From: a virus
Taxonomy: Duplodnaviria; Heunggongvirae; Uroviricota; Caudoviricetes
Virus record (IMG/VR): IMGVR_UViG_2541047682_000003
Strand: one strand, 5' to 3'
DNA: 24,435 nucleotides
In this document: positions 6,745 through 21,311 of the stretch, piece by piece
How positions within the stretch are numbered: the stretch's first letter is position 1
Layout of the letters: each line of letters starts with the position of its first letter
Notes under the pieces: model-generated
Databases searched by the model: none
What the model was told of the DNA's origin: nothing
The model's input: the letters and a program-made list of their open reading frames with translations, nothing else
Position numbers and translations under genes: made by a program

Positions 6745-7045
6745 TTAGCAAATGAATTTATCATCTCGCCGTCAGTTGTTTTGATTTCCGGTAGCCTGCC
6801 GCGTAAAGAGCTACGTTCGGAAGACAAGTTGAACCTTCATATTTTCTGGTCAACGTTGTCAGAGTTATCACTTCTGCTCTCATTGCTGGTTTGAGCTTGC
6901 ATTGCAAGACCACTCGTGAAGGGGTTGGCCTGTGTAGCTTGTCGGAGCTGATCGCCTCCTGACTTTGCAGATTTGCGCGACGAGCTCTACGGCGAGAAGC
7001 TGCGGTGCCTTTAAATGAAGTGGTCAACAAAAACTGGCCACCGAG

Positions 7046-8193
<1,148 letters not shown>

Positions 8194-8384
8194 TATGGCA
8201 CCTGTGTTGTTCTGAGGTGAGCATATCACCTCTGTTCAGGTGGCCAAATTCAGTAAACCACTTCAAAATTCTGTTTTTCTGGACATGGATTCCTCCCGAA
8301 TAAACTTTGGCGATGCAATCTCGAAGCTCCTCCTGAGACGGTTGCTTCGGCATTGCATCCCACAGCTTATGTGGTTGGGTGATC

Positions 8385-8430
8385 TGGCTTTTCAGCCACG
8401 TAGTCGAGAGTCGACGTTGTTTAAAGAGCC
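8385..8430 (-). promoter_or_regulatory. Putative nutL (boxA + boxB)
   Basis: Minus-strand read: boxA-like GGCTCTTTAA (revcomp of 8421-8430), then ACAACG, a small hairpin, TACG, and a boxB-like hairpin TGGCT-GAAA-AGCCA (8385-8398). Same architecture as the site downstream of cro. Confidence 0.55.
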
Positions 8431-8469
8431 TGCCAGTCTGTTCCATTTGGCTTCCAGCGTCCTGCTGAC

Positions 8470-8515
8470 GGTTAAATAGTACGATATGTACTTTACAAGA
8501 TCAATACAATTTGTT
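8470..8515 (-). promoter_or_regulatory. Putative pL promoter with OL operators
   Basis: Minus-strand read: -35 TTGATC (8504-8499), 17-nt spacer, -10 TACTAT (8481-8476). Operator-like palindrome AGTAC-ATATC-GTACT (8478-8492) overlaps the spacer and -10; a second ATTGTATT motif lies at 8503-8510. Confidence 0.5.
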
Positions 8516-8689
8516 GTAAGTTGGCGTGGTTTTTTATAACGCTTTGTATTTAATAGTGTTGTTTTTTAGCGTGGATGTATTGCCTCGGCGATGTAAGGAG
8601 AGATCAGAATTGCGTGGTTTAGTGGGTTGCATCTATTTATTTTTCAATAAATATAATTGGTTATGTGTTTTTAGGTGGGCGAACGTGAG

Positions 8690-8720
8690 GCAAAGAAAAC
8701 CCGGCGCTGAGGCCGGGTTG
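8690..8720 (-). terminator. Intrinsic terminator closing the cI operon (minus strand)
   Basis: 8-bp GC-rich stem AACCCGGC/GCCGGGTT with 6-nt loop, followed on the minus strand by TTCTTTG; immediately after the stop of the 250-aa ORF. Confidence 0.6.
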
Positions 8721-8722
8721 TA

Positions 8723-9475
8723 TTATGCTGCAAGTCTCTTAACCCAAGTCTCTCTTTTGGAGAATGGTAGAACTTGGCTTGATTCATGGAAGAGTAAGGA
8801 GAGTTGTTGCATTTGATCACCAATTGCTTCGCTGTCTATAACAACAAATCTGTTGTTATACTCCTCACTTGAAGCTTTAAGATCAATTAGTTTCCCAAGC
8901 AATGAGTAAGCACTATTCCAGCTTCCTCCGTGTTTCACGCTTGATGTAAAAACGTATTTAGGTATGTCGGTTTTTATTGTTACAGGGACGGTAATTTGAT
9001 GTCCACTCAAGCCATATACGTTTTCACGAAGAGAAAGTGCGTCTCTAAGCTCTGTGTGATATAGATAATCAATAACCATACTTTCAAACTTTTCAGCTTG
9101 AACTGGCTGATACCAGTCTAACGACAAAGTTGATGCGAGTATACCAGCTCTAATTATGTTCGATGTAATCGCACCGACATCCTTTTCTGTTGCCCAAGCA
9201 ATGATTTCTCCTCGAGCATTGAGTTCTGCGCCTTCTTTAAGCAGTAATTGTCGTATCTCATCAAGTCGTTTTTTGGTAAGCGAGATCCCTCTTGCCTCCA
9301 TATTCATTAAGGCATCGCATCTGTCACTAACTAAATACCTACCATTGACTTCACGGATAAAGGCACCGACATGCTCTCCATCATCACAGTAAGTGAATGG
9401 ACTGATAATTCTCAAGGTCTTGCCTATTGGATGGCATTCGAAACCTAGTTGTGAGATCACTGTTGAGCACATCAT
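8723..9475 (-). CDS. Uncharacterised protein B of the cI-linked two-gene cassette
   Basis: 250-aa ORF; its ATG (9475-9473) overlaps the TGA of the upstream ORF (ATGA). No family or catalytic motif recognised. AT-rich by eye. Confidence 0.7.
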   Translation of the reverse strand: MMCSTVISQLGFECHPIGKTLRIISPFTYCDDGEHVGAFIREVNGRYLVSDRCDALMNMEARGISLTKKRLDEIRQLLLKEGAELNARGEIIAWATEKDVGAITSNIIRAGILASTLSLDWYQPVQAEKFESMVIDYLYHTELRDALSLRENVYGLSGHQITVPVTIKTDIPKYVFTSSVKHGGSWNSAYSLLGKLIDLKASSEEYNNRFVVIDSEAIGDQMQQLSLLFHESSQVLPFSKRETWVKRLAA

Positions 9476-10029
9476 ATTCCAAACCCCATTTGCCCCGACT
9501 CATCTTCAAGCGGTAAAGGTATTCTCCCAGAGTAAGTTATGTTCAGATGTTTACAGAAGTAATTCCAATACCCTACCAGGTCATCTGGGTTTATGTCATC
9601 TTCGATTGGAAACGCTATTCTATCACTATAGTATCCAGCTTCTTCATAGTATACATGGTAGTGAGCACCGTAAATGATATCTTGGTACTTCGGATGATCG
9701 ACCTTGTAACTATTCGTGTGTTTGTCAAAGTGATAGGTATCTACCGCGAAAACCCTCTTGTTATGATAGAAAGCAATAATATTTATTTTAGGGTAAGAAA
9801 TCGGGTCATCAGGTTCTGAATCCTGATCTGGTTTCCATTTCAGTTCAAACTTTAGCCCTTGTATAGGTATACAATCCTCATCCAAGGGGATGATATGGGC
9901 TTGTAGCCACATATCAGAGCGACTTGGTTTCTGTTTCCATTTAACGCCAGAAAAGTTAACTATTTTTTTACAATAAAGTACTTTATCAACTTCTACTTGG
10001 CTTGGCTGATAATCATCTATTTTTGCCAA
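9472..10029 (-). CDS. Uncharacterised protein A of the cI-linked two-gene cassette
   Basis: 185-aa ORF starting 39 nt downstream of the cI stop. First codon is TTG directly after an in-frame TAA, so the start is non-canonical or uncertain. Tyr/His/Asp/Pro-rich, no TM segment, no family recognised. Confidence 0.65.
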   Translation of the reverse strand: MAKIDDYQPSQVEVDKVLYCKKIVNFSGVKWKQKPSRSDMWLQAHIIPLDEDCIPIQGLKFELKWKPDQDSEPDDPISYPKINIIAFYHNKRVFAVDTYHFDKHTNSYKVDHPKYQDIIYGAHYHVYYEEAGYYSDRIAFPIEDDINPDDLVGYWNYFCKHLNITYSGRIPLPLEDESGQMGFGI

Positions 10030-10068
10030 TGTTTACCGCCCTGTAAATTGTAGATAAAAGTGGTTTCA

Positions 10069-19201: not shown

Positions 19202-19495
19202 TTATTGTGAGCAATACACACGCGCTTCCAGCGGAGTATAAATGCCTAAAGTAATAAAACCGAGCAATCCATTTACGAATGTTTGCTGGGTTTCTGTTTT
19301 AACAACATTTTCTGCACCACCACAAATTTTTGCTGCATCGACAGTTTTCTTCTGCCCAATTCCCGAAACGAAGAAATGATGGGTGATGGTTTCCTTTGGT
19401 GTTACTGCTGTAGGTTTGTTTCCAACAGTAAACGTCTGTTGAGCACATCCTGTAATAAGCATTGCCAGAGCGGCAGAAAACAACATTTTTTTCAT
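19202..19495 (-). CDS. bor: Bor lipoprotein (serum-resistance)
   Basis: 97 codons from MKKMLFSAALAMLITGCAQQ (lipobox); matches lambda Bor as recalled. Confidence 0.92.
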   Translation of the reverse strand: MKKMLFSAALAMLITGCAQQTFTVGNKPTAVTPKETITHHFFVSGIGQKKTVDAAKICGGAENVVKTETQQTFVNGLLGFITLGIYTPLEARVYCSQ

Positions 19496-19677
19496 CTTAT
19501 TATCCTGCATTGTTAAAAACGGCAGAATCCTATGTGACAACAATTAAACGATAGTTAAATGGATTGATGAAAATTAAAACTACACAGGTGGGCTCAGACT
19601 ATTGGAGGAAGTTGGGGACACTCAGAATCCTGTGGAATGAAATAAACCGGTCTATCCGTCCATTACTGGATTTGCCC

Positions 19678-20583
19678 CTATATTTCCAGACACCTGTTAT
19701 CACTTAACCCATTACTGGCTTGCTGCCGCAGATATTCCCGTGGCGAGCGATAACCCAGTGCACTATGCGGATGCCATTCGTTATAATGCTCGAACGCCTC
19801 TGCAAGGTTCTTTGCTGCCGTTAACCCGTCTGGTTTGGGCATGACACTGATGTAGTCACGCTTTATCGTTTTCACGAAGCTCTCTGCTATGCCGTTACTC
19901 TCCGGACTCCGCACCGCCGTGCTCTTCGGTTCAAGCCCCAACATCCGGGCAAACTGCCGTGTTTCATTAGCCCGGTAGCATGAACCATTATCCGTCAGCC
20001 ACTCTACTGGAGACGCCGGAAGCTCGTTGCCGAAGCGGCGTTCCACCGCTCCCAGCATGACGTCCTGTACTGTTTCACTGTTGAAGCCGCCCGTAGTGAC
20101 CGCCCAGTGCAGTGCCTCACGGTCACAGCAGTCCAGCGCGAACGTGACTCGCAGTTTTTCTCCGTTATCACAGCGGAACTCGAACCCGTCAGAGCACCAT
20201 CGCTGATTACTTTCTTTCACAGCCACTCTGCCTGTATGTGCCCGTTTCGATGGCGGTACAGCAGGTTTTCGCTCAAGCAACAGCGCATTCTGGCGCATGA
20301 TCCGGTAAACACGTTTGGCATTGATCGCAGGCATACCATCAAGTTCTGCCTGTCTGCGAAGCAGCGCCCATACCCGACGATAACCATACGTGGGCAGCTC
20401 TCCGATAACATGGTGTATACGGAGAAGCACATCCGTATCATCAGTGTGACGACTGCGGCGGCCATCCATCCAGTCATCGGTTCGTCTGAGAATGACGTGC
20501 AACTGCGCACGCGACACCCGGAGACAACGGCTGACTAAGCTTACTCCCCATCCCCGGGCAATAAGGGCGCGTGCGCTATCCAC
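19678..20583 (-). CDS. insD: IS2 InsD (OrfB transposase)
   Basis: 301-aa [26 protein letters not shown]...; overlaps insC for the frameshift fusion. Confidence 0.92.
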
Positions 20584-20906
20584 TTTTTTGCCCGTCCATA
20601 TTCAACGGCTTCTTTGAGGAGTTCATTTTCCATCGTTTTCTTGCCGAGCAGGCGCTGGAGTTCTTTAATCTGCTTCATGGCGGCAGCAAGTTCAGAGGCA
20701 GGAACAACCTGTTCTCCGGCGGCGACAGCAGTAAGACTTCCTTCCTGGTATTGCTTACGCCAGAGAAATAACTGGCTGGCTGCCACACCGTGTTGCCGGG
20801 CAACGAGGGAGACCGTCATCCCTGGTTCAAAGCTCTGCTGAACAATTGCGATCTTTTCCTGTGTGGTACGCCGTCTGCGTTTCTCCGGTCCTAAGACATC
20901 AATCAT
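20541..20906 (-). CDS. insC: IS2 InsC (OrfA, HTH)
   Basis: 121 codons from [25 protein letters not shown]... Confidence 0.9.
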
Positions 20907-21311
20907 CTGCTCTCCAATGACTAGTCTAAAAACTAGTATTAAGACTATCACTTAAATAAGTGATATTGGTTGTCTGGAGATTCAGGGGGCCAGTCTAATT
21001 ACCCTTTTAGCTGCGCTGTATCGTCGCCGTATTCCCGCATTAACCATGACCGTAGCCCGACGGGGAATTCCTTCTGCGTGAGTGTGCGGGAATAATTAAA
21101 AACGATGCACACCGGGTTTTTACCGCGTTAATGATTCGCGGGTTTATCCCGGTGCGATGGTGGAAGAAACAGGAAGCTGTATTACAGAAAGTGCTACTAC
21201 TGTATCCCGATGCGATGTATGTAATGTGAGTCAGATAATGGCACAGGATGTGGTGATGTGGCAGTCTGGAACACAGGATATATTGTCAGAATAAGACCCG
21301 TAGGAATAAAA

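Follow-up and report, generated by a model that had tools for sequence, protein, structure and literature searches.

What do two genes do that lie between the repressor gene cI and the leftward operator and promoter (OL/pL) of a lambdoid Escherichia coli prophage, in the slot that rexA-rexB occupies in phage lambda? The question is raised by a stretch of viral DNA of 24,435 nucleotides (nt) (IMG/VR record IMGVR_UViG_2541047682_000003; hereafter the window), the early region of such a prophage, in which the two genes, here called A and B, form a cassette directly downstream of cI. As judged from profile comparisons, this cassette is a divergent, enterobacterial and prophage-borne branch of the candidate family PDC-M24. 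The explanation we favor, and to which we give about an even chance of being right, is that it is a mobile two-protein cytoplasmic module, carried as lysogenic-conversion cargo and likely protecting the lysogen against other phages. The best reading of its type is a lysogen-expressed, toxin-antitoxin-like abortive-infection or exclusion module, within which we favor A as the effector and B as the regulator or sensor.

Several lines of evidence point to defense. The position of the cassette 3' of a repressor is conserved across lineages and repressor families. It is modular, being AT-rich and found behind two unrelated E. coli repressors, with other cargo found behind the same cI. The A-B partnership is old and under purifying selection. 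Both PADLOC (PDC-M24A/B) and DefensePredictor (log-odds) single out the pair. The protein architecture fits as well, with conserved His/Asp/Asn residues in A, chaperone-like and PD-(D/E)xK-like folds in B, a DUF1829 domain otherwise met in the HipAD partner, and a suggestive start-codon pattern. Finally, the cassette resides in prophage 3 of E. coli Nissle 1917, a strain whose phage resistance is only partly explained.

Position of the cassette behind the repressor

In nearly all lineages examined, A-B lies on the repressor strand, directly 3' of a prophage repressor. The order is a divergent cro-like gene, the repressor, A, B and then, where visible, the N peptide or early-left genes, and this order was seen in E. 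coli, Salmonella, Klebsiella, Photorhabdus, Erwinia, Aeromonas, Thorsellia and one metagenomic lineage. The preceding repressors are of at least four types, including S24-type proteins of 195-282 amino acids (aa) from different families and short helix-turn-helix (HTH) proteins of 121-131 aa. In the Shiga toxin 1a (Stx1a)-converting phage Stx1_121427, the same cassette (99.9%) lies ~90 nt past an unrelated S24-type repressor of 234 aa (locus L021, 4021-4725). The cassette has therefore switched from one immunity type to another, and at least one Stx-converting phage carries it. Conversely, the cI of the window occurs without the A-B cassette in more than 200 phage records. The same cI (~98% identical) is followed by a 283-aa open reading frame (ORF) in 2G7b/PhiR11_1 (L019, 2149-3000), and the same cI is followed by the 173-aa ORF b63 in Stx1 phage AP005153 (L020, 2476-2997); neither of these alternative cargo ORFs has a Pfam or PADLOC match. 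Since the same cassette occurs behind unrelated repressors and other cargo behind the same cI, the cI-to-OL/pL position is a cargo hotspot. The cassette, with its own terminator, thus appears to be mobile and to have been selected for riding on the repressor transcript.

A strict linkage to the repressor across immunity types would be equally expected if A-B were a switch or housekeeping accessory, modulating, for its own phage, the choice between lysogeny and lysis, induction or DNA transactions. The nuclease-like domain of B (see below) could bind DNA in such a role, and a part of RexAB in the lysogenic-to-lytic transition is cited in a passage of PMC12315714. We nevertheless consider this explanation decidedly unlikely. 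Functional phages with the same cI carry unrelated cargo and no cassette, which makes the cassette dispensable for the switch, and the unrelated repressors and operators that accompany it argue against specific operator or repressor interactions. Its low GC content and its own terminator mark it as an add-on.

The anatomy of the unit largely agrees with the original prediction, which was made by a model from the letters of the window (Table 1). It had described two same-strand ORFs of 185 and 250 aa beginning 39 nt past the cI stop, with the ATG of B overlapping the TGA of A, and both the frames and the ATGA overlap hold. It had taken TTG for the start of A, directly after an in-frame stop; the TTG stands, and the stop is one codon further off than described, i.e. 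two codons 5' of the start (TAA ACA TTG). Because the MAK N terminus of A is kept in 18 of 18 aligned homologues, we regard TTG as the real start. The strong hairpin and T-tract said to close the unit form an intrinsic terminator (-14.6 kcal/mol, z = -3.15 against shuffles). Its placing "just before" OL/pL was approximately right, OL-like sequence being found ~180 nt further on. This OL-like region contains an 11-nt match to the rightward operator region OR (AAAGTACATAT, in inverted orientation) and palindromic TACAA/TTGTA elements, and its counterpart in Stx1 phage AP005153 bears three annotated operators. An AT-richness noted by eye is borne out by the computed GC content, which is 39.6% for the cassette (A 38.2%, B 40.6%) versus 46.6% for the whole window, with 46.3% for cI and 50.1% for O-P. 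The cassette does occupy the rexA-rexB slot, N being the next gene in the intact relative PhiR57_1, and the view of it as a moron in a variable slot is upheld by the other ORFs found behind the same cI.

The ATGA overlap implies that translation of A and B would be coupled. In all seven lineages inspected (this and six others), B begins with an ATG that either overlaps the 3' end of A or adjoins it. The start of A is not ATG in four of the seven, being TTG in E. coli and Aeromonas and GTG in Salmonella and the metagenomic lineage (window 10027-10029 and homologous loci L002, L006 and L015). Such a non-ATG start, against the constant ATG of B, would hold expression of A low relative to that of B. 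As for transcription, no terminator-like site was found in the spacer between cI and A, and the sole promoter-like match there (10047-10019, 9/12) is no better than chance. Transcription is presumed to enter the cassette by read-through from cI (pRM), and the 39-nt gap free of a terminator suggests that cI and the cassette are co-transcribed. Internal promoters, analogous to pLIT, were considered and rejected, the region having five promoter-like matches versus 6.3 expected from shuffles. Nucleotide similarity to Salmonella cassettes reaches 8689-8696 and includes the hairpin, indicating that the terminator moves along with the cassette.

Both ORFs are real genes under strong purifying selection, since in comparison with the Salmonella copy synonymous sites are saturated (proportion of synonymous differences, pS, 0.74-0.88) and replacements strongly constrained (nonsynonymous, pN, 0.09-0.16). 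Homologues fall into 47 clusters for B and 21 for A, across Enterobacterales and Aeromonas. An exhaustive profile search for A in 1.84 billion representatives returned only 20 clusters, all single-domain and about 99-185 aa long, which makes A a rare family without informative domain fusions. In three loci with its most distant members (21-28% identity by alignment), the next gene again overlaps or adjoins that of A and encodes a DUF1828 protein of about 245-253 aa, and the pair is kept down to about 21-32% identity. That distant A homologues still precede a DUF1828 gene argues that the A-B partnership is ancient and obligate.

Table 1. Features of the repressor-to-pL interval in the window (positions in nt)
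Feature	Position	Strand	Details
cI-type prophage repressor	10069-10770	-	Pfam Peptidase_S24 1.3e-28, HTH_3 2.1e-10; RefSeq 10069-10764, LexA family protein, WP_001302016.1
cI-to-A spacer	10030-10068	-	39 nt; purine-rich AGGGCGG 6-12 nt 5' of the TTG start
Gene A	9472-10029	-	185 aa, TTG start, WP_001062368.1
A/B start-stop overlap (ATGA)	9472-9475	-	ATG of B over TGA of A
Gene B	8723-9475	-	250 aa, ATG start, WP_000968518.1
Intrinsic terminator, end of unit	8698-8719	-	8-bp stem with 6 G-C pairs, then UUUUCUUU
OL-like operator region, pL-side border of the slot	8478-8520 (approx.)		sequence common to OR

The two proteins and their relatives

Both A and B are soluble and mildly acidic, and lack signal peptides. 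Neither has a match in NCBIfam, and profiles of A, of B and of the C-terminal domain of B gave chance-level matches only against all Protein Data Bank (PDB) chains. The structure model of B (predicted local distance difference test (pLDDT) 82) has a predicted template modeling (pTM) score of 0.55, indicating two domains whose placement relative to each other is uncertain. The N-terminal DUF1828 domain (about residues 1-125) is modeled as a secretion-chaperone/YbjN-like fold, and the C-terminal DUF1829-type domain (about 126-250) as a PD-(D/E)xK restriction-endonuclease-like fold with an alpha-beta-beta-beta-alpha-beta core. DUF1828 is detected in Pfam at 33.5 bits, above the cut-off of 22, and in 10 of 10 relatives. 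HMMER detects DUF1829 in only one of 10 relatives (E 0.011-0.049), and HHpred assigns residues 155-241 of B to it with 98.8% probability (Table S5, PMC13092281). The canonical catalytic D...(D/E)xK is not conserved, no conserved Lys or Asp/Glu being present at the strand 2/3 positions, and no PDB or Pfam nuclease family is detectable for B by sequence. The deep invariants of the C-terminal domain are G155, S157, G158, P164, T177, G194 and D198. The highest 19-residue Kyte-Doolittle mean is 1.19, i.e. there is no transmembrane segment, and B belongs to phrog_1960 of PHROGs.

A is modeled as mostly beta-strand with two helices (pLDDT 82, pTM 0.80) and has no membrane segment (highest 19-residue Kyte-Doolittle mean 0.45). 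Across 15 sequences, down to 21% identity, K22, W31, R92, D97, N106, G121, H123, H125, F158 and P173 are invariant and H104 is nearly so (≥90%). The D97/H104/N106/H123/H125 cluster resembles, and may be, a metal-dependent active site. A cupin or HNH reading of the HxH...E and H-x-N motifs of A was rejected, as the fold search returned neither cupin nor His-Me finger and motif order and secondary structure do not fit either. A is probably distantly related to Pfam DUF6978, with formal membership below the cut-off: it scores 22 bits, under the gathering cut-off of 29.6 and over its C-terminal part only, and five of its 15 relatives match at E≤0.01. It belongs to phrog_2017. No function for DUF1828 or DUF6978 was found in the literature searched.

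PADLOC-DB 2.0 holds PDC-M24 as a two-gene candidate (PDC-M24A plus PDC-M24B); the literature treats PDC-x systems as candidates that are unpublished. The cassette has the two adjacent genes in the same order. B matches PDC-M24B along its entire length (residues 2-249 of 250 aligned with profile positions 4-254 of 256, E 4.7e-10), and B and all nine relatives tested match PDC-M24B models at full length (best 1.8e-15). A differs in matching PDC-M24A weakly, over the C-terminal third only (residues 104-163, E 4.8e-4), and several distant homologues match as well, the three PDC-M24A models being hit by three, three and one of the 15 family members. It is this weak and partial match that makes the cassette a divergent branch.

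The defense interpretation itself is not new, as the exact RefSeq proteins of the window have already been flagged in public resources. DefensePredictor (DeWeirdt et al., Science 2026, PMC13092281) lists both, with a mean log-odds of 5.64 for B (WP_000968518.1) and log-odds for A (WP_001062368.1) of 4.90 in the set based on the ECOR collection and 5.42 in the 3,000-strain set; a near-identical B variant (WP_000968517.1) has 6.26. These scores of 4.9-6.3 exceed the strict cut-off of 4. Both proteins are labeled "Predicted novel defense gene", which means without sequence or structural homology to known defense proteins, and are placed in one operon (PMC13092281). In that work, 45% of the cloned predictions were validated, with a rate that climbs with log-odds (PMC13092281). 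The original prediction had offered the pair as a candidate defense module of no recognized family and, by implication, as new. The candidate defense reading is backed by both predictors, and the prediction was right about the slot and the kind of element and plausible about function. The claims of an unrecognized family and of novelty fall, given DUF1828(+DUF1829) in B, a weak DUF6978 link in A, PHROGs families for both and the prior listing of the exact proteins. Of the comparisons it had proposed, PADLOC gave the full-length match of B and the weak match of A, and homology and structure searches left A without a recognizable fold and gave B its chaperone-like and nuclease-like folds.

How does the cassette compare with lambda RexA-RexB? 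The two share the slot between cI and OL/pL, the cI strand, the number of genes, a terminator before pL and presumed expression in the lysogen. RexB is a multi-pass membrane protein. A and B, on the other hand, are soluble and include no polytopic membrane (ion channel) protein of the RexB type. Neither has a RexA match in Pfam at E≤1, and PADLOC gave PDC-M24 only. The folds differ too, B being chaperone-like plus nuclease-like and A having no known fold match. The lack of resemblance to RexA and RexB stated in the original prediction is therefore confirmed: the cassette is unrelated to RexAB, and its location in the slot is a positional feature, not proof of membership.

The sole functional context found for the C-terminal domain of B is HipAD (DS-6), a validated system in which a HipA-like kinase gene is followed by that of a DUF3037+DUF1829 protein for which binding to the kinase and, less strongly, to DNA is predicted (PMC13092281). 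As in the cassette, there are two genes, and the second protein, with DUF1829, is proposed to neutralize or regulate the effector encoded by the first (PMC13092281). However, A is not a HipA kinase, B pairs DUF1829 with DUF1828 whereas the HipAD partner pairs it with DUF3037, and HipAD is experimentally validated whereas the cassette is a predicted candidate. B also differs from PD-(D/E)xK effectors (Can2/Card1, NgoMIV/Cfr10I/PspGI) in lacking the conserved catalytic D...(D/E)xK, a CARF or DNA-recognition domain, and membership of a nuclease family by sequence.

Roles of A and B

Several features lead us to favor A as the effector and B as its regulator. The enzyme-like invariant cluster is in A, and the nuclease fold of B lacks a catalytic signature. 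The N-terminal fold of B is of a chaperone-like, protein-binding kind. HipAD offers a parallel in gene order and in its DUF1829 partner. Lastly, A is weakly initiated and, as proposed below, would not be produced without B.

The cassette could then work as follows. In the lysogen, transcription from pRM would pass the 39-nt spacer and end at the cassette terminator, a course consistent with the observed geometry. A would be poorly translated from its TTG or GTG start, and B would be made through coupling at the ATGA overlap, so that A would not be made without B. B would keep A inactive or act as a sensor, its chaperone-like DUF1828 domain binding A or a phage protein, and its nuclease-fold DUF1829 domain, devoid of the catalytic signature, would bind nucleic acid or a partner instead of cutting. 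Infection by a heteroimmune phage would release or activate A, with D97, N106, H123 and H125, together with H104, as a putative metal-dependent site. Abortive infection or a block of phage replication would result. By analogy, this logic would be toxin-antitoxin-like and similar to that of HipAD, with an effector gene followed by a DUF1829-containing partner, in the niche of RexAB.

The main rival reverses the wiring. In it, B is the effector, a derived PD-(D/E)xK-fold nuclease gated by DUF1828, and A is a sensor or adaptor for a phage component, which would suit the faster divergence of A than of B. The invariant D198 of B, moreover, is placed at what we take to be the site of the relocated catalytic acid of NgoMIV-type enzymes. 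We regard this arrangement as unlikely. B has no conserved D...(D/E)xK, its strands 2-3 hold neither a conserved lysine nor a conserved second acid, sequence searches of PDB and Pfam found no nuclease family, the DUF1829 protein of HipAD is a non-catalytic partner, and the more enzyme-like invariant cluster sits in A.

A number of points weigh against a defense module with A as effector. The model of A matches no solved fold in the structure search, its active site is deduced from residue conservation, and any toxic or enzymatic role is putative. Its link to DUF6978 and PDC-M24A is weak (E about 2-5e-4) and confined to the C-terminal third. The roles of the two proteins could also be swapped. 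Transcription from pRM is suggested by geometry, and in certain homologous loci the cassette is 130-650 nt away from the repressor or, as in L013, not obviously behind one, so that these may use their own promoter. As for the predictions, no paper mentioning PDC-M24 was found in the literature searched. The A-B pair is absent from Table S6, the full list of cloned and screened units, and more than half of the cloned predictions of DefensePredictor did not validate (PMC13092281). The score is, in addition, not fully independent of the positional argument, since the model takes genomic neighbors into account. Finally, no experimental test of A-B was found in the literature searched, the E. coli prophage defense screen of Brenes & Laub 2025 being outside that search.

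Carriers, the Nissle 1917 phenotype and neighboring features

Among 5426 complete E. coli genomes, 250 have the cassette at ≥99% identity, in every case on the chromosome. They include those of Nissle 1917 (probiotic), CFT073 (uropathogen), S88 (meningitis strain), ATCC 11775 (type strain) and ATCC 25922 (quality-control strain). This near-identity across 250 genomes would also suit a selfish addiction (toxin-antitoxin) module that has no effect on phages and serves to stabilize the prophage or the immunity region. The same is true of its maintenance in degraded prophages (Nissle prophage 3 with a truncated integrase; the window with N disrupted by an insertion sequence (IS)), and of its make-up as a translationally coupled two-gene unit with a weakly initiated first gene. 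We find this improbable, and rank it below the switch accessory: A and B are large for a type II toxin-antitoxin pair, and searches of Pfam, NCBIfam and PADLOC matched neither of them to a known toxin or antitoxin family. Many toxin-antitoxin modules in such locations do defend against phage, and this explanation overlaps the one we favor instead of excluding it.

A host-benefit lysogenic-conversion pair unrelated to phage (stress, metabolism, virulence), or a non-functional cassette, seems very improbable. The same prophage does have other host-directed morons (an ompC-like porin gene and iss), and carriers among the listed strains are largely human, extraintestinal or commensal isolates (CFT073, S88, Nissle). 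Nevertheless, conservation excludes a non-functional cassette, A and B have neither signal peptides nor membrane segments, no metabolic or virulence family is matched, and two defense predictors are positive. All three non-defense readings, as switch accessory, addiction module or host-fitness moron, are less likely than defense.

The copy in Nissle 1917 lies in prophage 3, at icd, next to an identical cI. This strain is fully resistant to lambda and Stx phages, and prophage 3 genes are up-regulated upon phage exposure (Bury et al. 2018, PMC5987069). A cloned Nissle "phage repressor" (pr, EcN_1294) protected K-12 about 200-fold from lambda and Stx phages, and the authors concluded that other prophage-3 genes must contribute to resistance (PMC5987069). 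We considered whether this work was a prior test of the cassette and rejected the idea. The published cloning and quantitative PCR primers for EcN_1294 map to window 11151-11514, a CII-family gene (cII homologue, 11197-11493, + strand), not to cI or the cassette. The cassette thus appears to be a candidate for the residual resistance of Nissle. More speculatively, and we think this improbable as a whole, A could be a new enzyme fold acting as effector of an undescribed abortive-infection mechanism, gated by B and expressed on the repressor transcript, and the "missing factor" in the lambda/Stx resistance of Nissle, CFT073 and ATCC 25922.

If validated, the cassette, prioritized by two independent predictors (the PADLOC candidate and DefensePredictor), would be a mechanistically new two-protein system in the lambdoid repressor-to-pL slot, a hotspot known chiefly from work on RexAB. 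A phenotype, if found, would be relevant to phage therapy, to the argument that Nissle is safe because it resists conversion by Stx phages and to the reading of phage-susceptibility data for these reference strains.

The gene order in the window is int-xis ... exo-bet-gam-kil-cIII ... sieB, N, [A-B cassette], cI, cro, cII, O, P, ren, nin genes, Q, lysis genes, terminase. Positions 8600-10800 are 100% identical to phages ev207, ev017, PhiR57_1 and PhiR63_2. A 1250-bp copy of ISEc52 (IS3 family) at 7017-8265 splits the antiterminator gene N (6761-7016 and 8266-8282). The element sits within a few codons of the 5' end of the gene and separates its body from pL/nutL. PhiR57_1 has an uninterrupted N, and in the closest complete genome, NZ_OZ547099.1, the same IS lies inside sieB. 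This copy of the prophage is probably N-defective and unable to grow lytically; cI and the cassette are nonetheless intact. A small conserved ORF between pL and N (8264-8446, - strand, 60 aa, WP_000438342.1) is annotated in RefSeq and in phage 2G7b as hypothetical.

A second IS3-family element (~19664-20997; ORFs 19678-20583 and 20541-20951, - strand) lies between iss/bor and the terminase region and is shifted by ~115 bp versus NZ_OZ547099.1. Both IS copies are thus positioned unlike those of the best-matching genome, the first being in N and not in sieB and the second displaced. Further lysogenic-conversion morons of the same prophage are the ompC-like porin gene (16329-17411, - strand), between Q and the lysis genes, and iss, which encodes a bor-like serum-survival lipoprotein (19202-19495, - strand). 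The stretch adjoining the porin gene (17400-17800) has a GC content of only 27%.

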